Part shown: positions 1,883 through 16,414 of the stretch, one piece after another
How the letters are laid out: each line of letters starts with the position of its first letter
Numbering within the stretch: the first letter of the stretch is position 1
From: Myxococcaceae bacterium
GTDB taxonomy: Bacteria; Myxococcota; Myxococcia; Myxococcales; Myxococcaceae
Assembly (NCBI GenBank): GCA_044223505.1
Contig: JBGALX010000012.1
Span: 26,174 to 90,173 of the forward strand
Length of the DNA stretch: 64,000 bases
Direction of reading: 5' to 3'
Position numbers and translations under genes: made by a program
Notes under the pieces: model-generated
The model's database searches: none
What the model was told of the DNA's origin: nothing
What the model saw: only the letters and a program-made list of their open reading frames with translations

Positions 1883-3466
1883 ATGAGCCTCTCTCGACGA
1901 CAGCTGCTCTCGTGGTCCCTCGGCGCTTCGCAGGTCGCGCTGCTCGAGCGCGCCGGCCTCTTCGGCGGCGGCCGCGCCCACGCGCAGACGATGACCGACG
2001 CGCCGTCGCGGCTCTGCGTGCTCTACGTGCCGGGCGGCTTCCGCTTCCAGCACGCGTTCTTCCCGGGCACCGACGCCGACGTCGTGAAGACCGTGCCGGC
2101 GCCGAGCAACTTCAACGGCGAGGCCATCTTCTTCCGCGCGAACCAGCTCGTCGACCTCGGGCCCGCGAACGGCGCGTACAACCCCGTGCGCATCTTTCGC
2201 TCGTGGGACCCGGCGATGCCGCAGACGCGCAACGACACGTACACGCCGGCGATGTACGGCTACCAGCACTTCGGCCTGGGCTCGCAGCTCTCGGTGCTGC
2301 ACGGCGTCGACCAGGGCACGAACGACCACGCGAGCGGCTTCATCGCCTCGGCCTGCGGAGTCGCCGGCGCCGACTTCCGAGCACCGTGCGTTCACGCGGT
2401 CATCGCGAACCACCTCTTCAACCGCTTCAAGGACCAGCGGCCGCTGCCGTTCGTCATCGTCGACAACTCGCGCGGCACGCCGCAGGCGATGGGCATGCCG
2501 TCGCGGGCGGCTCCGGTGTTCGTGCCGAGCATCGACGCGCTGGCGCCGCAGCTCTCGGCGAGCCCGGCGACGAACCGCTGGTGGCAGGGCCTCGACGGGC
2601 GCGCCGACCGGCCCGAGAAAGACGTGCGCGGCATGGCGGTCGGCGGCACCCTCAAGACCACCACGCTCGAGGAGTACACGCTCGGAGTCCCCGGCAAGTA
2701 CCTCGGCCGCTCGAACGCGAAGGTCGACGGCTTCCTCGAGGGGCTGCACGGCTCGCTGTCGAGCGTGAGCCGCGTGCTGGCGACCGACGTCGTCACGGTG
2801 CTGCAGCAGACGAAGGGCATCGACGACCTGATGACGAACAAGCCTTCGTACCTGTCGAGCTACGGCAACGTCGGGCCGTTCGGGTACACGTTCGGGCTCG
2901 CGAACTTCCACATGACGCAGCTCGAGCCGCGGCTCGACATGACGCTGCGGCTCCTCAAGTCGAACCTGGCGACGAGCGTGCACGTCGCGCTCGCGCCCGA
3001 CTACGACACGCACAACGGCACGGGCAACGCGTCGAGCTGCGCGCACGGCCGCAACCTGATGGACATCGTGGCGCGGTTTCTGGGCGAGCTGAAGGCGACG
3101 CCGGCGCCGGGGCTGCCAGGCAAGACGCTGCTCGACGACACGCTGGTGCTGGTGCAGAGCGAGTTCGGTCGCACGTGGTCGGCGCAGAACGGCGGCGGCT
3201 ACGACCAGGGCGACAACCACCACCCGTACACGTCGGTGGTGTTCGCGGGCGGCAACGTGGCGGGCAACCGCAGCGTGGGTGGGTTCGAGATTCCCGCGGG
3301 CATCGGCACGCCGGTCGACATCATCGAAGAGAACGGCCAGGCGTCGCGCCGGGTGCCGCGGGCGGCCGACGTGGTGACGACGGCGCTGCGCTGCCTCGGC
3401 ATGGGCATGCACGACTTCTTCATCCCCGGCGGCTACGGCGAGGTGACCGGCATCCGGCGCGGCTGA
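1883..3466 (+). CDS. DUF1501 domain protein with twin-arginine signal
   Basis: N-terminal MSLSRRQLLSWSLGASQVAL fits a Tat signal. Sulfatase-like motifs follow (HHPYTSVVFAGGNVAG). It is the usual partner of PSD/DUF1800 proteins. Confidence 0.6.
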   Translation: MSLSRRQLLSWSLGASQVALLERAGLFGGGRAHAQTMTDAPSRLCVLYVPGGFRFQHAFFPGTDADVVKTVPAPSNFNGEAIFFRANQLVDLGPANGAYNPVRIFRSWDPAMPQTRNDTYTPAMYGYQHFGLGSQLSVLHGVDQGTNDHASGFIASACGVAGADFRAPCVHAVIANHLFNRFKDQRPLPFVIVDNSRGTPQAMGMPSRAAPVFVPSIDALAPQLSASPATNRWWQGLDGRADRPEKDVRGMAVGGTLKTTTLEEYTLGVPGKYLGRSNAKVDGFLEGLHGSLSSVSRVLATDVVTVLQQTKGIDDLMTNKPSYLSSYGNVGPFGYTFGLANFHMTQLEPRLDMTLRLLKSNLATSVHVALAPDYDTHNGTGNASSCAHGRNLMDIVARFLGELKATPAPGLPGKTLLDDTLVLVQSEFGRTWSAQNGGGYDQGDNHHPYTSVVFAGGNVAGNRSVGGFEIPAGIGTPVDIIEENGQASRRVPRAADVVTTALRCLGMGMHDFFIPGGYGEVTGIRRG

Positions 3467-3469
3467 GCA

Positions 3470-3575
3470 AAAAAGGGGACAGGCTACTTTTTTGCGCAAC
3501 GCGCCCGGCCTCCCGCGGCCGACGACAACCGATGGTTGCGCAAAAAAGTAGCCTGTCCCCTTTTTTGCTCAGCCG
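3470..3575. terminator. Large perfect inverted repeat (~34-nt arms, ~28-nt loop) between convergent genes; likely bidirectional terminator
   Basis: gcaaaaaaggggacaggctacttttttgcgcaacg ... cgttgcgcaaaaaagtagcctgtccccttttttgc. T-runs flank both arms. Lies between the DUF1501 stop (3466) and the TIGR02996 gene stop (3569). Shares a core with a second hairpin at 57.5 kb. Confidence 0.6.
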
Positions 3576-4423
3576 AGCTGCGCCCACGCGGTGGCGGGCT
3601 CACCGAAGTGCGTGCGCAGAGAGCGCGTGACGTCGTCGTCGTGCGCCACGTAGCGCACCGCGAACCGCTTGCGGCGCTGGCCGAGCAGCTCGAGCACCGT
3701 CTCGCGCGTGAACGGCGCCTGCAGCCACTTGAGCGCCTTCGCCGCCGCCAGCGGAGCGAGCGAGCGCAGCGGCGCGTCGGCTCCGAGGTGAAGGTGCGTG
3801 AGCTGCGGAAAGAACGGCGCCGCCGCGAGCGCCGTGAGCGCCTCGTCGGTGACGCGGCAGTGCTCGAGGTTCAGCCGCTCGAGCGCGGGCAGCCTGCAGC
3901 GCGCGAGCTCCGCGACCTCTGCGTCGCCGTTGCCGGTGAGGTCGAGCACGCGCGCCTTCGCGAAGAAGGCCGTGTCGAGCACCCTGAGCTCGTCGCGCCG
4001 GAGACCGGCGTGCGAACAGTCGAAGTGCTCGACCGTCGGGTGCGGCGCCGCACGACCGAGCGTCGGCACCGAGCCCAACAGCTGCAGTCGCTCGAGCGGC
4101 ACCAGCGCCAGCGTCTGAAGCGCGTCGGCGGGCTGCTCCCAGTCGACGCTCGCCCGCTCGAGAAAGCCCCGCCGCCACTTCCAGCTGCGAATGAACGGGC
4201 GCAGCGGCGCGAGCCACGCGTGCTCGTGCACGTGCAGCAGCTGCTGCTCTCGCTTCGCGAGCGCCCTCGCGTCGCCCAAGCGCTTCGCGAGCCTGCACTG
4301 CACCTGAATCAGCTCGCCGCGCGCGTTGCCGTGCTCGAGCAGCCAGTCGGCGTAGACGAGGCGCGGCGCGTCGTCGGCGGGAGCCGCCATGATGGCCTGC
4401 AAGAAGTCTGGCTCGCGATGCAC
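3569..4423 (-). CDS. TIGR02996-domain (repeat-companion) protein with leucine-rich repeats
   Basis: N-terminal PRLVYADWLLEHGNARGE is the TIGR02996 signature. Leucine-rich repeat-like segments follow. Confidence 0.65.
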   Translation of the reverse strand: MHREPDFLQAIMAAPADDAPRLVYADWLLEHGNARGELIQVQCRLAKRLGDARALAKREQQLLHVHEHAWLAPLRPFIRSWKWRRGFLERASVDWEQPADALQTLALVPLERLQLLGSVPTLGRAAPHPTVEHFDCSHAGLRRDELRVLDTAFFAKARVLDLTGNGDAEVAELARCRLPALERLNLEHCRVTDEALTALAAAPFFPQLTHLHLGADAPLRSLAPLAAAKALKWLQAPFTRETVLELLGQRRKRFAVRYVAHDDDVTRSLRTHFGEPATAWAQLG

Positions 4424-4441
4424 CTGCAGCGGGTTCGTAAC

Positions 4442-5305
4442 TCACGGGCAGCCGACCCGCGAGCTGCCGAGCGCCACGTCGTCGACGAGCAGGTTGCCGC
4501 TGCCGCCATGGTAGATGACGTTCTGCACCTGCACCGACGTCCACCCGCTCGGCACTGCGGGGCCGCTCTGTGCGGCGGCGAAGTCGGTCACCTCGGCGCC
4601 GTTCAGCCACGCCCGGTAGACGCGCGTCGTGCGGTCGTACGAGGCCTCGAGGCAGCTCCAGGCCGCGGTCGGCACCACCGCCATGCTGTCGATCGCCGCC
4701 TCGCCGTTGGGCCACTTGTAGAAGGCGATCAGGTTCGGGTTCGCGTCGGTCGTCGCGGTGTAGTCGCCCGCGGTGCGCGCGCTCAAGATTCCGAAGCGGC
4801 TGTCCATCGTCGACGGCAGGAAGCTCGAGCGCAGCATCACGCGGATGAAGACGACGTCGCGCGCCGCGCTCAGGTTGAAGTTCAGCGACTGCCCGCCGGG
4901 GATGTCGAGGGCGCGGGCTCCACGGTAGGCAGCGGCGGCCGTCACCTTGATGGCGTCGTTGCGGCTCCACGGCGCCGGAGCCGCGCTGCCCACGGGAGCC
5001 CCCTCGAAGTCGTCGCAGAAGAACGCCGCCCCCGTTGCGCACGGGTTGTTCACCGCGCCGCCGGCCGAGCCGCCCGCGCTGCTTCCGCCAGCGGTGCTTC
5101 CGCCCGCAGTCGCGCCGCCGGCAGTGGCTCCTCCCGCCGTGGAGCCGCCGGCCACAGAGCCTGCGCTCCCCCCACCCGCGGTCATCCCACCGGCCGTCGC
5201 ACTGCCGGCCGTGCTGCCGCCTGCCGTCGAGCCGCCGCCACCCACATCGCCCACCTCTCCCTCGCACGCGGCACATGCCAGGAGGCAGGCGACCCACGGT
5301 CTCAT
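4442..5305 (-). CDS. Lipoprotein with (GGTAGG)n linker and C-terminal beta-sandwich-like domain
   Basis: Lipobox MRPWVACLLACAAC, then a Gly/Thr/Ala repeat linker and a globular domain. Only 19 bp upstream of the TIGR02996 gene, so probably co-transcribed. Confidence 0.6.
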   Translation of the reverse strand: MRPWVACLLACAACEGEVGDVGGGGSTAGGSTAGSATAGGMTAGGGSAGSVAGGSTAGGATAGGATAGGSTAGGSSAGGSAGGAVNNPCATGAAFFCDDFEGAPVGSAAPAPWSRNDAIKVTAAAAYRGARALDIPGGQSLNFNLSAARDVVFIRVMLRSSFLPSTMDSRFGILSARTAGDYTATTDANPNLIAFYKWPNGEAAIDSMAVVPTAAWSCLEASYDRTTRVYRAWLNGAEVTDFAAAQSGPAVPSGWTSVQVQNVIYHGGSGNLLVDDVALGSSRVGCP

Positions 5306-5344
5306 GCCGCAAAGACACCGCGAACCTCGAAGTCGAGACAGCCG

Positions 5345-5647
5345 CTACCGGCAGGGCTTCACGTCGACCTCGCAGCGGCCCGCGCGGCACACCGCCGACG
5401 AGCGCTCGCACGGGCAGTCGAGCGACGGGCAGCGCGGGGGACCGCCAGAGACGTCTTCACAGGCGCTGCGCGCGCTCGCGGCCGTGGCCTTCGTCGCCGC
5501 GACCGGACGACAGGTCGTGCAGCAGCTCGGCGGAGCGGCTCCGACGAGATCACAGTCGCCGTCGCCCGAGCACGGGCTGTCGGACACGCGCGTCACGAAG
5601 CGGCAGCCCGCGGCGGCGAGCAGCAGCACGAAGACCCAGCCCCTCAC
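5345..5647 (-). CDS. Possible small Cys-rich lipoprotein (100 aa)
   Basis: GTG start gives MRGWVFVLLLAAAGC (lipobox), followed by an 87-aa tail with 13 Cys. The start overlaps the stop of the GATase gene. Not called as a separate ORF in the track (it sits inside 5345..5995). Confidence 0.35.
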   Translation of the reverse strand: MRGWVFVLLLAAAGCRFVTRVSDSPCSGDGDCDLVGAAPPSCCTTCRPVAATKATAASARSACEDVSGGPPRCPSLDCPCERSSAVCRAGRCEVDVKPCR

Positions 5648-6333
5648 ACGCGCACCAGCGCCCGCACCAGCCGCTCGAGCAGCGCGACGTTCGCGGCCTC
5701 GGCGGCCTTGAGCTTGCCCGCGTCTTTCGCGAGTGCGTCGGCGTCGAGGCGCGCGGCCTTCAGCGTCTCGGCGCCGCGCTTCAGCCACTGCAACCACTGC
5801 GCCGCGTCGAGCTCGGCGTGAAACTGCAGGCCGTACGAGCGCCCGACGCGGAACGCCTGCTGCGCGTAGCGGTCGGTCGAGGCGAGCAGCGTGCCGCCCG
5901 GCACCGGCGTGAACGTCTCGGCGTGCCAGTGCGCGACGGTCGACTTCGCGCCGACGCCCTTGAACGCGGGGTCCTCCTGGGCGGCCTTCATCCACTTCAC
6001 CGCGCCGATGCCAATCTCGGGGCCGTTCTTGCCGACGTGCACCTCGGCGCCCGCGGCGGACGCGAGCAGCTGCGAGCCGAAGCAGATGCCGAGACAGGGC
6101 CGCTCGAGCGCGAGGCGCTCGATGAGCAGCGCGCGCTCGGCTCCGATGAACGGGTGCACCCCGACGTCGTTCGCGCTCATCGCGCCACCGAGCACCACCA
6201 GCAGGTCGGCCGCGACGTCCGCGTGCTCGACCGACCGAAACCGCTTCACCAGGTCGAAGCCCGCCGCCGTCAGCACTGGCCCGAGCAGGCCGGCGTCTTC
6301 GTGCTCCTCGTGCTGGATGATGACCGCGCGCAC
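5644..6333 (-). CDS. Class I glutamine amidotransferase-like protein
   Basis: GATase1 fold with catalytic Cys in the GICFGSQLL context; GMP-synthase-type small subunit pattern. Confidence 0.7.
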   Translation of the reverse strand: MRAVIIQHEEHEDAGLLGPVLTAAGFDLVKRFRSVEHADVAADLLVVLGGAMSANDVGVHPFIGAERALLIERLALERPCLGICFGSQLLASAAGAEVHVGKNGPEIGIGAVKWMKAAQEDPAFKGVGAKSTVAHWHAETFTPVPGGTLLASTDRYAQQAFRVGRSYGLQFHAELDAAQWLQWLKRGAETLKAARLDADALAKDAGKLKAAEAANVALLERLVRALVRV

Positions 6334-7354: not shown

Positions 7355-7903
7355 ATGAAGAGCTGGAACCTGATGGTGGTGCTGTTGGCGCTCGCAGGCT
7401 GCGGGCCCGTAGAGAACGTCGTCGACGAGGGCGACGAGCTCGCGACGACGCAAGACGCGCTCGGCGGTCGGCCGGTGATGCGCATGCCGTTTCGGTGCGG
7501 GCAGGTGTGGGCTGCGTCGACGCGCGCCACCCACAGCCCGCAGCTCGCGGTCGACTGGAACCGCGACGGTGACCTCGGCGACGCCGTCATCGCGTCGGCG
7601 GGCGGCACCGTGACGCGCTCCGAGAGCGAGGGCGACGTCAGCTACGGCAACTGGGTCGAGATCGGCCATGGCAACGGCTACCGCACGCGCTACGCGCACC
7701 TCTCGGTTCGCGGCGTGAAGGTGGGCGACGAGGTGAAGATGGGCGAGAAGATCGGCGAGGTCGGCAGCACCGGCGACTCGAGCGGGCCGCACCTGCACTA
7801 CGAGCAGCTCCACGACGGCACGCCGATTCGCGTGAAGATCGGCTCGACCGACATCGGCTACTTCGAGACGCAGAGCTACCGCAGCCACAACAGCTGCCCG
7901 TAG
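7355..7903 (+). CDS. M23 family metallopeptidase lipoprotein
   Basis: RBS gaggaaag lies upstream. Lipobox LLALAGC. LytM motifs HxxxD and GSTGDSSGPHLHYE. Confidence 0.75.
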   Translation: MKSWNLMVVLLALAGCGPVENVVDEGDELATTQDALGGRPVMRMPFRCGQVWAASTRATHSPQLAVDWNRDGDLGDAVIASAGGTVTRSESEGDVSYGNWVEIGHGNGYRTRYAHLSVRGVKVGDEVKMGEKIGEVGSTGDSSGPHLHYEQLHDGTPIRVKIGSTDIGYFETQSYRSHNSCP

Positions 7904-14741: not shown

Positions 14742-16414
14742 CGCTTCTGCGGCGGCGGCGACAGCGTCACCCGCAGTGACTTGTCGGCCCGCTCGACGAG
14801 CTGCAGCCACAGCACGCGCGGTGCGTGGCCTTCGCGCTCGAACGTCAGCTCGAAGGGAATGCCGGCCTTGAAGCGCAGCGCGACCGGAGTCGTGCCGAGC
14901 TCGCGGCTGTCGAGGCGGACCTTGGCGCCCGGCGGGTCGGTGTCGAGCATCACGCCGAGCCGGTCGCCGCGGTTGTCGTCGGGGCTCAGCCGGCCCCACA
15001 CCTTGAGCGGAGCGAGAGCGACCGGCGGCGCGACGGGCGCCTCCCTCTCCCCCGTAGGGGAGAGGGGCGGGGTGAGGGGGTCGGTCGGCGCAACGAGAAC
15101 CTCAGCGTCTGGAGTCTCCTCCGCGCCGCTGTCCGCCACTGCCTCTTCCTCAGCCACGGGCGCAGGCGCCGCTTGAACCGCCGGCGGCTGCTCTGCGACC
15201 GGTGCCGGCGCCGGCGCCGGGCTCGGAGGCTGCACGAGAACCTCAGGCGCTCGCCCCTCACCCTGTCCCTCTCCCCTACGGGGGAGAGGGGACGTGAGAA
15301 ACCACCATGCCGCCATCGCGATCGCAGCGACCAGCGCGAGCACCGCGAACATGCGCGAGGTCCCGCGCGCGGGCTTTTCGGGCTCCACCTTCTCGGGCGG
15401 GCTCGTCTTCAGCTCATCCGAGGACAGCTCGATCCACTCGGGCTCGTCGGCCTTCTTCGGCACCGGCAGCATCGACTCGCGCGTGACGGGCACCTGCCCG
15501 TCTTTCTTGTTCAGCGCGCGCATCCACGCCTCGAGCTCGGTGCGCCCGAACGGGGGCAGCACCGACCGCTGCACCTTCTCGAGCGCCGCCACCATCTCCT
15601 GCGCGCTCTGAAAGCGCAGCTTCGGGTCGCGCTTCATCGCCTCGAGCACCACCTTCACGAGCTCCTTCGGCAGCGACGCCTTCACCTTCGCCGGCGACAC
15701 GAACTCGCCCGACGCCACCCGCACCAGCAGCTCCCGCTCGTTCGGAGCCCTGAACGGCGGCTCGCCCGTGAGCAGGTAGTAGAGCAGCGTGCCCGCCGAG
15801 AACAGGTCCGACCGCGCGTCGACCGGCTCCGCGCTCGCCTGCTCCGGCGACATCCACGACGGCTTCCCCGCGACGGTGCCGATCGCCGAGTTCGAGCTGC
15901 GAATTCTCGCCTTCGCGATGCCGAAGTCCGCGAGCTTCACCTCGCCCGTGTCCGACACCAGCACGTTGTTCGGGCACACGTCGCGGTGAACGATGTTCAG
16001 CTTCACGCCCGCGCGCGTGCGCTCGTGCGCGTAGCCCAGCGCGCGGCAGACCTCGGTCACGAGGTACGCGGCCAGCTCGGGCGTCACCGCGACCTTCGCG
16101 GCGCGCGCCCGCTCGAGCAGCTGCTGCAGCGTCCACCCGTCGACGAGCTCGAGCACCAGGAAGTAGCGCCCGCGCGACTCGCCGAGGTCGAGCACCTCGA
16201 CGAGGTTCGAGTGGTGCAGGCCCATCGTGACGTGGGCCTCTTCCACCAGAATGCGGCGGAACATCTCGTCGGCGTACAGCTCGGGCCGAATGCGCTTCAG
16301 CACGACGAGCCGGCGAAAGCCCGCGGCGCCGACCTGCTCGGCGAGGAACACCTCGGCCGTGCCGCCGTCGGCGATTTTTCGCAGCGCCTTGTACCGGCCT
16401 GCCACCGCGGGCAT
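14738..16414 (-). CDS. Ser/Thr protein kinase, membrane-anchored, with C-terminal PEGA-like domain
   Basis: Kinase motifs HRDVCPNN, DFGIA, SPE. A TM helix. Two inverted copies of the 40-bp palindromic element lie in-frame in the Pro-rich linker. Confidence 0.8.
   Translation of the reverse strand: MPAVAGRYKALRKIADGGTAEVFLAEQVGAAGFRRLVVLKRIRPELYADEMFRRILVEEAHVTMGLHHSNLVEVLDLGESRGRYFLVLELVDGWTLQQLLERARAAKVAVTPELAAYLVTEVCRALGYAHERTRAGVKLNIVHRDVCPNNVLVSDTGEVKLADFGIAKARIRSSNSAIGTVAGKPSWMSPEQASAEPVDARSDLFSAGTLLYYLLTGEPPFRAPNERELLVRVASGEFVSPAKVKASLPKELVKVVLEAMKRDPKLRFQSAQEMVAALEKVQRSVLPPFGRTELEAWMRALNKKDGQVPVTRESMLPVPKKADEPEWIELSSDELKTSPPEKVEPEKPARGTSRMFAVLALVAAIAMAAWWFLTSPLPRRGEGQGEGRAPEVLVQPPSPAPAPAPVAEQPPAVQAAPAPVAEEEAVADSGAEETPDAEVLVAPTDPLTPPLSPTGEREAPVAPPVALAPLKVWGRLSPDDNRGDRLGVMLDTDPPGAKVRLDSRELGTTPVALRFKAGIPFELTFEREGHAPRVLWLQLVERADKSLRVTLSPPPQKR
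15041..15080 (+). repeat. Palindromic element copy 3
   Basis: ctccctctcccccgtaggggagaggggcggggtgaggggg. Confidence 0.8.
15254..15293 (-). repeat. Palindromic element copy 4 (inverted relative to copy 3)
   Basis: cccctcaccctgtccctctcccctacgggggagaggggac. Confidence 0.85.

Follow-up and report, generated by a model that had tools for sequence, protein, structure and literature searches.

Genes that resemble those of REP-associated tyrosine transposases (RAYTs; REP, repetitive extragenic palindromic sequence), and that are flanked by terminal inverted repeats (TIRs), not by REPs, were described as 'TIRtrons' encoding 'TIRYTs' (Di Nocera et al. 2013, BMC Genomics 14:522, PMC3733652). Many TIRYT TIRs share a GGGGWSAS box and sit at similar distances from the gene, and TIR families, of moderate abundance, comprise single copies, dimers and groups (PMC3733652). 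TIRYTs correspond to subclass 2.1 of the TnpAY1 transposases, that is, to Group 1 of Bertels's RAYT classification (Quentin et al. 2018, PMC6006769). This subclass shows a patchy distribution, like that left by horizontal gene transfer, and has no REP-like sequence nearby. It is defined by a HuH motif NH[YF]H or NHVH, a W[EQ] motif, a YIELNP or Y[IV]HLNP motif and a C-terminal domain resembling a helix-turn-helix (HTH; Bac_DnaA_C, HTH_23/28) (PMC6006769). Group 1 is the most widely distributed RAYT group, and its flanking 16-mers are only modestly abundant (Bertels et al. 2017, PMC5581495). In the literature searched, the term TIRYT was found only in PMC3733652 and PMC6006769. Here, we analysed two large hairpins, copy 1 and copy 2, lying in a 64-kb stretch of contig JBGALX010000012.1 of a Myxococcaceae bacterium, hereafter the window. 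The hairpins belong to this known but obscure class of elements. In all likelihood, each is a gene-less TIR dimer of the TIRYT/TIRtron clade, whose enzymes are RAYT-like Y1/HUH transposases, and the dimer is built from two inverted copies of the terminal repeat of TIRYT genes, which is ~23-40 nt long and consists of an A-run, G, GGGACAGGCTAC and a T-run. Such a link explains two odd AT-rich palindromes in a genome of 70% GC.

The repeat unit and its transposase

A scan of 596 Gb, with one genome per species and GGGACAGGCWACTTTT as the query, returned at least 116 loci; total abundance is a lower bound. About 550 hits to a 16-mer are expected by chance in that volume of sequence, and lone matches carry little weight. 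The unit that emerged was a ~23-mer with the consensus A5-G-GGGACAGGCTAC-T5. The A-run with its G upstream and the T-run downstream were present in 97 of the 116 motif-selected loci listed. A stricter flank filter was passed by 88 of the 116, belonging to at least 20 phylum-level groups and spanning a GC content of 0.29 to 0.70. Carriers were found in Bacillota, Aminicenantes/Acidobacteriota, Nitrospirota, Myxococcota, Desulfobacterota, Campylobacterota, Elusimicrobiota, Planctomycetota, Bipolaricaulota, Omnitrophota, Tectomicrobia, Binatia and others. Isolates were among them, for example Citrifermentans bremense R1 and Desulfoscipio geothermicus DSM 3669, and several metagenome-assembled genomes (MAGs) had three to five loci each. 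The initial annotation, made from the window only, had proposed that the structured element is dispersed and is more than a local terminator, and these counts bear it out. It had also taken the hairpin as the family unit: the shared core is indeed repeated, but the unit is the single 23-mer and not the hairpin. Further copies, whose absence would have counted against its proposal, exist in Myxococcaceae MAG-72 and in many other genomes, the scan of the organism's own genome being that of the 64-kb window.

At the 88 loci, we counted 68 solo units, 32 close inverted pairs and 9 direct pairs. Spacing within inverted pairs varied from 4 to ~130 nt, and the loops were mostly unrelated. The polarity was invariant: all 32 close inverted pairs were arranged as GGGACAGGCTAC...GTAGCCTGTCCC, none the opposite way, and this is the polarity of the full TIRtron. 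Units also preferred positions right after stop codons, 22% of them lying within 15 nt after the stop of an open reading frame (ORF) of at least 100 aa as compared with 3% of random positions. The stop codon was often fused to the A-run (TAAAAAAG, TGAAAAAG, TGAGCAAAAAG). A search of viral contigs with a 20-mer gave no hits, hence no sign of a phage vehicle, and a full-text literature search with the 12-mer in either strand returned human PCR primers only.

An all-against-all comparison of the ORFs in the motif-selected loci revealed one family of ~220-aa Y1 transposases, of which a gene or fragment abutted the unit in nine loci. The proteins carry an HUH motif PNHFHL (NHFH), WQ and Y[VI]xxNP. 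They scored 50-57 bits against Pfam Y1_Tnp, and 77.7 and 87.7 bits against the NCBIfam model for REP-associated tyrosine transposases, whose cut-off is 80. At six of the seven loci examined, from five phylum-level groups, a forward unit lay 45-100 nt upstream of the gene and an inverted unit at or just past its stop; one locus (L049) had two tandem upstream units. In several loci, the gene runs into the right-hand repeat: the A-run of the latter encodes the last lysines after a C-terminal AT-hook, and the TAG of GTAG is the stop codon. Since the repeat there supplies both the terminal lysines and the stop, the end of the TIRYT gene is the end of the element.

We then turned the comparison around and picked 80 metagenome loci by the protein alone, 73 of which had enough flanking sequence. 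A unit was present upstream in 31 of the 73 (-32 to -78, mode ~-55) and downstream in 31 (-5 to +56, apart from a single locus at +124); 29 loci carried both. About three quarters of the homologues with at least ~49% identity had the unit, as did almost all of those at 51% or above. In addition, variant cores co-varied on the left and right sides of the gene (GGGACATTCTAC/GTAGAATGTCCC, GGGTCAGGCTAC/GTAGCCTGACCC, GGGACTGGCTAC/GTAGCCAGTCCC). Collectively, these data define a real, widely dispersed repeat family that brackets a TIRYT gene at fixed distances. The sub-clade with GGGACATTCTAC showed two or three tandem upstream repeats (L133 at -171 and -54; L138 at -175, -93 and -55), resembling the multi-REP REPtrons of E. 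coli.

The clade is large, as 7,785 of 8,000 scored candidates had E <= 1e-30, all of them named only 'transposase'. A plasmid collection searched with the transposase protein contained relatives of at most 42% identity. The clade was already among the published TIRYTs, because gbm 2474 of Geobacter bemidjiensis (Additional file 5 of PMC3733652) is 69% identical over 120 aa to the protein of our locus L039; the TIRYT alignment in that supplement also includes dau 2153 of Desulforudis. As compared with the definition of TnpAY1 subclass 2.1, the transposase has NHFH and WQ, but its Y motif, Y[VI]xxNP, lacks the L, and the HTH/DnaA_C-like C-terminal domain of Quentin et al. was not detected. Indeed, the C-terminal 80 aa gave no HTH or DnaA_C match even at E <= 10, and only a weak AT-hook hit. 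The tail [LI]RPRGRP[KR]K contains a classical AT-hook core, 104 of 120 homologues had RGRP within their C-terminal 40 residues, and similar basic tails of the RGRP type occur in other published TIRYTs.

Three minor features of the units were noticed. Full units were often trailed by their 3' half, repeated incompletely once or twice (as GCCTGTCCCCTTTT or only GTCCCTTTT), and this stutter may mark the point at which the enzyme cleaves and rejoins, or replication slippage. Some dimers from MAGs assigned to Eubacteriales and to Aminicenantes shared a near-identical loop of 15 nt (TTAATTACCTCTGGA or a variant of it, in one orientation or the other), which suggests either that some dimers spread as whole units or that binning errors occurred. 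A strict unit was also present at the extreme end of a 4.6-kb contig (L010:32-47) of a Candidatus Woesearchaeota MAG, a contig that was assigned to archaea but could be mis-binned.

The two hairpins of the window

Both hairpins of the initial annotation were recovered, and they were larger than it had claimed. The arms of copy 1 are 44 nt long and 98% complementary (one mismatch), with a perfect stretch of 41 nt (3460-3500 / 3535-3575) and a 34-nt loop. The corresponding RNA was predicted to fold at -95.6 kcal/mol on the plus strand and -98.5 on the minus strand (z = -11 and -13 against shuffled controls). Copy 2 is more degenerate: its 32-nt arms are 88% complementary, 12 nt separate them, the outer A/T runs are eroded, and the predicted folds reach -54.8 and -67.3 kcal/mol (z = -6.4 and -7.6). 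The 16-nt core said to be common to the two, GGGACAGGCTACTTTT, was found with up to two mismatches at four sites in the window and in none of 100 window shuffles, copy 2 bearing the announced mismatch. The GGGGWSAS box is present in copy 1 as GGGGACAG, and copy 2 has GGGACAG, one G short. Beyond the two hairpins, neither units nor half-units were found in the window, whose GC content is ~70%, and no Rfam family matched it at the gathering score.

Copy 1 lies, as previously described, between convergent genes, and their coding nature is supported by GC contents at third codon positions (GC3) of 0.96 and 0.93. Its left unit begins 2 nt past the TGA (3464-3466) of the gene for a DUF1501 protein, and its right unit stops 2 nt short of the stop of the convergent gene (3569-3571, TCA on the plus strand). 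The orthologous site is empty in two relatives, L199 and L200, in which DUF1501 ends ...GYGEVTGIRRG-TGA, at the same codon as in the window. Because the stop codon is the same, the insertion of copy 1 did not remodel DUF1501, and we rejected the idea that the element supplied this gene with a new stop codon. Arms of ~45 nt (CTGMGCA-A6-G-core-T6-GCGCAAC) are common to copy 1 and to loci L040 and L043, and define a long-armed subfamily. Myxococcaceae MAG-72 is the source of both loci, and its DUF1501 orthologue shares 88% identity with that of the window. The layout of copy 1, a long GC-rich stem preceded by A6 and followed by U6 on both strands, with convergent genes on either side, suggests that it probably acts as a bidirectional terminator or 3' stabiliser, as a secondary effect. 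One locus from a Pseudomonadota MAG (L058, near 5148-5220; GC 0.48) has a junction, TGAGCAAAAAG-GGGACAGG, that matches the TGAGCAAAAAAG-GGGACAGG of copy 1 (3464-3475). That this junction recurs in an unrelated genome of low GC hints that a few bases beyond the A-run are part of the element, or that the target is a preferred one.

Two ORFs overlapping this region, 3600-5411(-) and 3536-5821(+), had a GC3 typical of non-coding sequence, 0.71 in the latter. According to the initial annotation, the hairpins generated mirrored spurious ORFs beginning MRKKVACPLF and MRKGTGYF. This was right for the first, 3536-5821(+), which we removed from the annotation, but the second is the genuine peptidase ORF 55742-57568(-).

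Copy 2 was found to be an insertion of 72 nt (57488-57559), that is, 24 codons, in frame after codon 3 (MRK) of that gene, which encodes a TPR / Peptidase_MA_2 protein. The window gene starts GTG AGG AAA, then the 72-nt hairpin, then TTG CTG GTA..., giving MRK(GTGYFSERRPRRSLRRAFGKVACP)LLVFASLSSLPAFA/ASGDEEDLEE. A 91% identical orthologue, P0002 (locus L117), has no element and starts GTG AGG CGC GCG CTG CTG..., giving MRRALLPLLALLALPAFA/ADEEDLEE. In both, the GTG start overlaps the TGA of the upstream DUF4175 gene (GTGA). Since this GTG and its overlap are kept in the element-free orthologue, the ancestral start lies upstream of the hairpin, in line with the earlier placement of copy 2 inside the gene. 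The unusually long N-terminus of the peptidase would then be a mobile element inserted in the signal peptide and translated with it. The sole downstream in-frame start, a TTG, would leave the signal peptide without a charged n-region. Copy 2 has no U-tract in the gene direction. We infer that copy 2 is tolerated because it is in frame within a permissive, positively charged n-region.

Other orthologues of the peptidase were not empty at this site. In P0005 (locus L118), P0009 and P0010, which are 72-78% identical, hairpin-encoded residues with different loops occupied the same position, and P0007 had a remnant of the element, the filled and remnant orthologues being altogether 72-80% identical. 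This pattern indicates either that the element has long resided there and was lost in the P0002 lineage, or that a hot spot received insertions more than once. The N-termini of P0006 and P0007 have long unrelated extensions ahead of the signal-peptide h-region, and the extension of P0007 contains EISLSP, which resembles a decayed reverse unit; elements seem to have landed or decayed repeatedly in the start region of the peptidase gene.

At neither site did the comparison of filled and empty sequences (window versus L117 for copy 2, window versus L199 and L200 for copy 1) reveal a target-site duplication, an absence that is expected under Y1/HUH chemistry. Presence/absence polymorphism was established at both sites by these sequence comparisons. 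Coordinates are collected in Table 1.

Table 1. Coordinates of the two dimers, their units and adjacent genes in the window, and of selected features at loci from other genomes
Feature	Position or locus	Strand	Details
Copy 1, complete TIR dimer (hairpin)	3457..3578		arms 3457-3500 / 3535-3578, loop 3501-3534
Copy 1 left unit, A6-G-GGGACAGGCTAC-T6	3469..3493	+	core 3476-3487
Copy 1 right unit, same 25-mer as left unit	3542..3566	-	core 3548-3559
Copy 2, more degenerate TIR dimer	57486..57561		arms 57486-57517 / 57530-57561
Copy 2 first unit core in gene direction, GGGACAGGCTAC	57548..57559	-	encodes ..GTGYF..
Copy 2 second unit core, GGGACAGGCAAC (GTTGCCTGTCCC in gene direction)	57488..57499	+	encodes ..KVACP..
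GGGACAGGCTACTTTT sites	3476+, 3544-, 57488+, 57544-		window scan; one mismatch at 57488
DUF1501 protein gene (Pfam PF07394)	1883..3466	+	stop abuts copy 1
Convergent gene, no Pfam hit	3569..4423	-	GC at codon positions 1/2/3, 0.77/0.48/0.93; stop abuts copy 1
TPR / Peptidase_MA_2 protein gene (Pfam), 608 aa	55742..57568	-	signal-peptide n-region holds copy 2
DUF4175 gene, upstream of the peptidase gene	57565..60756	-	TGA stop 57565-57567, 5 nt before copy 2 first unit core
Unit-flanked transposase genes	L079, L074, L039, L089, L103, L049, L027		motif-selected
Gene end overlapping right-hand repeat	L079:3795-3815, L074:1178-1195, L120, L122, L125, L166
Stutter	L118:1574-1610; L026 near 3053-3075; L103 downstream of 7661; L027, L079		in L027 and L079, downstream of the transposase gene
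Dimers with shared loop	L018:1922-1968; L034:936-982, 2468-2514; L082:3603-3647, 7592-7638; L100:6-52

Described systems and rival explanations

Because the unit brackets genes of the published TIRYT clade in the same polarity as in the dimers, we assign the window hairpins to TIR dimers of this known TIRtron family. Resemblances are the GGGGWSAS box (GGGGACAG), inverted flanks of a Y1/HUH gene at near-constant distance, dispersal as singles, dimers and groups, a patchy spread over many phyla, and a clade that holds gbm 2474 and dau 2153. Other features go beyond the searchable text of the TIRtron papers: a 23-mer, A/T tracts included, that hardly varies over at least 20 phylum-level groups, a strict dimer polarity, the position after stop codons, the C-terminal AT-hook and an in-frame insertion in a signal peptide. 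Neither the unit sequence nor an AT-hook was found in the text or supplements of PMC3733652 and PMC6006769, whose figures are not searchable.

As for the mechanism, the dimers may have arisen from full elements through loss of the gene or through pairing of the ends, and a TIRYT whose gene lies at another place in the genome would mobilise them in trans, or have done so in the past. If the chemistry resembles that of IS200/IS605 and REP/RAYT systems, this would involve transposition of single-stranded DNA without target duplication. The C-terminal AT-hook (RPRGRPKK) may bind to the A/T tracts on either side of the conserved core, and recognition of the unit, whose A/T stem is weak, probably differs from that of REP or IS200 hairpins. 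The frozen repeat, the dimer polarity, the after-stop sites and an AT-hook matching the A/T tracts offer hypotheses for DNA recognition by a neglected branch of HUH enzymes.

Several points weigh against a family of TIRYT-mobilised dimers. There is no biochemical work on any TIRYT in the literature, the mechanism is borrowed by analogy from E. coli TnpAREP, and the structure of that enzyme (4ER8), the nearest one solved, matched the transposase with an E-value of only 9e-8. The Pfam AT_hook match was below threshold (E = 0.069). Single units pair with themselves weakly and through the A/T runs only (stems of at least 7 bp in 19%, versus 9% with shuffled partners). Loops are unrelated between copy 1 and copy 2, and also between the orthologous filled sites of the window and L118. 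Consensus terminator and promoter scans found nothing at either hairpin site, a result that is uninformative since the scan allows loops of 3-8 nt only. Finally, no Myxococcota TIRYT of this clade was among the named hits, and no transposase gene lies within the window, so any current mobility in this organism is putative.

These last absences would also suit a situation in which the hairpins derive from TIRtron ends and are no longer mobile, in a lineage without an active TIRYT, copy 1 having been co-opted as a terminator or 3' stabiliser, or copy 2 being tolerated. We regard such relics as possible but doubtful. The degeneracy of copy 2, with its 88% arms and eroded A/T runs, fits them, as does the concentration of units at gene 3' ends, and the element or remnant at the same peptidase site in P0005, P0007, P0009 and P0010 suggests long residence. 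However, copy 1 retains 41 perfectly paired arm bases, both sites are empty in the closest relatives (88-91% protein identity), which points to gain or loss on a short time scale, and MAG-72 holds more copies of the long-armed subfamily at other sites. A more daring proposal is that the TIRYT clade is a horizontally spreading 'terminator installer', whose site, placed just after stop codons, would yield ready-made bidirectional terminators in at least 20 phyla. An A-tract, 13-nt core and T-tract would be read by the HUH core together with the AT-hook, and constraints from both enzyme and terminator would have frozen the site across GC contents of 29-70%. This we consider improbable; if true, it would represent a Y1-transposase system with a cross-phylum repeat, unlike the lineage-specific REPIN-RAYT pairs.

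The REPIN-RAYT systems themselves (Bertels & Rainey 2011; E. coli TnpAREP, PDB 4ER8) resemble ours in that two inverted short repeats form a long hairpin, which is non-autonomous, presumed to depend for its movement on a Y1/HUH enzyme of low copy number, whose gene lies between copies of the same repeat, and mostly extragenic at gene 3' ends. One could take the units for REPs and the hairpins for REPINs that depend on a RAYT present in a single copy and inherited vertically, as in Pseudomonas or E. coli. The dimer architecture, the GTAG within the unit and the NCBIfam scores around the RAYT cut-off speak for it. Yet canonical REPs are self-complementary and carry GT[AG]G at the base of a stem rich in GC, whereas our units are barely palindromic, with GTAG inside the conserved core; given the stem frequencies above, we dropped a true REP-like hairpin with a conserved loop as a defining feature of the unit. 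The enzyme clade fits TIRYTs (longer, with a C-terminal extension and GGGGWSAS flanks). REPs are lineage-specific and vertically inherited (PMC5581495), whereas one repeat sequence recurs here in at least 20 phylum-level groups. The repeat-transposase pair therefore behaves very differently from REPIN-RAYT systems, and a canonical REPIN identity is very unlikely. With IS200/IS605 and the miniature PATEs, the TIRYT system shares HUH/Y1 single-stranded DNA chemistry, the absence of target-site duplication and short non-autonomous derivatives, but IS200/IS605 elements end in asymmetric subterminal hairpins, not in terminal inverted repeats, and their transposases are of ~150 aa with a Y...Q motif, as compared with ~220 aa, Y..NP and an AT-hook tail.

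The initial annotation had offered three identities for the hairpins, and of these a MITE (a miniature transposable element with inverted repeats) came closest. Like the classical DDE MITEs (Correia/NEMIS), the hairpins are miniature, have TIRs, are intergenic, may serve as terminators and are occasionally translated in frame, but their cognate enzyme is HUH/Y1 and not DDE, and a DDE-type MITE was rejected since no direct duplication separates filled from empty sites. A terminator, its second option, is plausible as a secondary effect for copy 1. As an origin, an ordinary intrinsic terminator or other host structural signal, with a core shared by chance or convergence and no link to a mobile element, could draw on the A-tract, stem and U-tract of copy 1 between convergent genes and on units just after stop codons. 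It is refuted by the tight and reciprocal association with the transposase gene, seen in the reverse test too, and by a near-invariant 23-mer in many phyla and over a GC range of 0.29 to 0.70. Nor does it agree with the absence of the 16-mer from all shuffled windows, with solo units, which are unable to form a terminator, or with the location of copy 2 inside a coding region; we give it next to no credence. The third option, a protein-binding palindrome, did not survive. A palindrome with a conserved core could be an operator bound by a nucleoid protein or transcription factor of the host, or a site like the attC of integrons, but half-sites spaced by 4 to ~130 nt, along with solo and direct-pair units, are incompatible with a dimeric operator, the outer ends lack the RYYYAAC / GTTRRRY core sites of attC, and there was no Rfam match. 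Either identity is exceedingly improbable. Arrays of attC keep a single orientation and lie next to intI. In the present case, A/T runs and the GGGGACAG core make up the outer ends, the units point both ways, and the GCGCAAC / GTTGCGC of copy 1 is an internal sequence that departs from RYYYAAC. Variable spacing, mixed orientations, natural gene contexts and isolate genomes also ruled out CRISPR repeats, CIRCE-, LexA- or parS-like operators and adaptor contamination.

A separate inverted-repeat family was noticed in the window at 15043-15079 / 15254-15290, with 37-nt arms that are 95% complementary and 174 nt apart. It is built of the blocks CCCTCTCCCC..GGGGAGAGGG and GGGGTGAGGGG, and is presumably the first palindromic family of the initial annotation.

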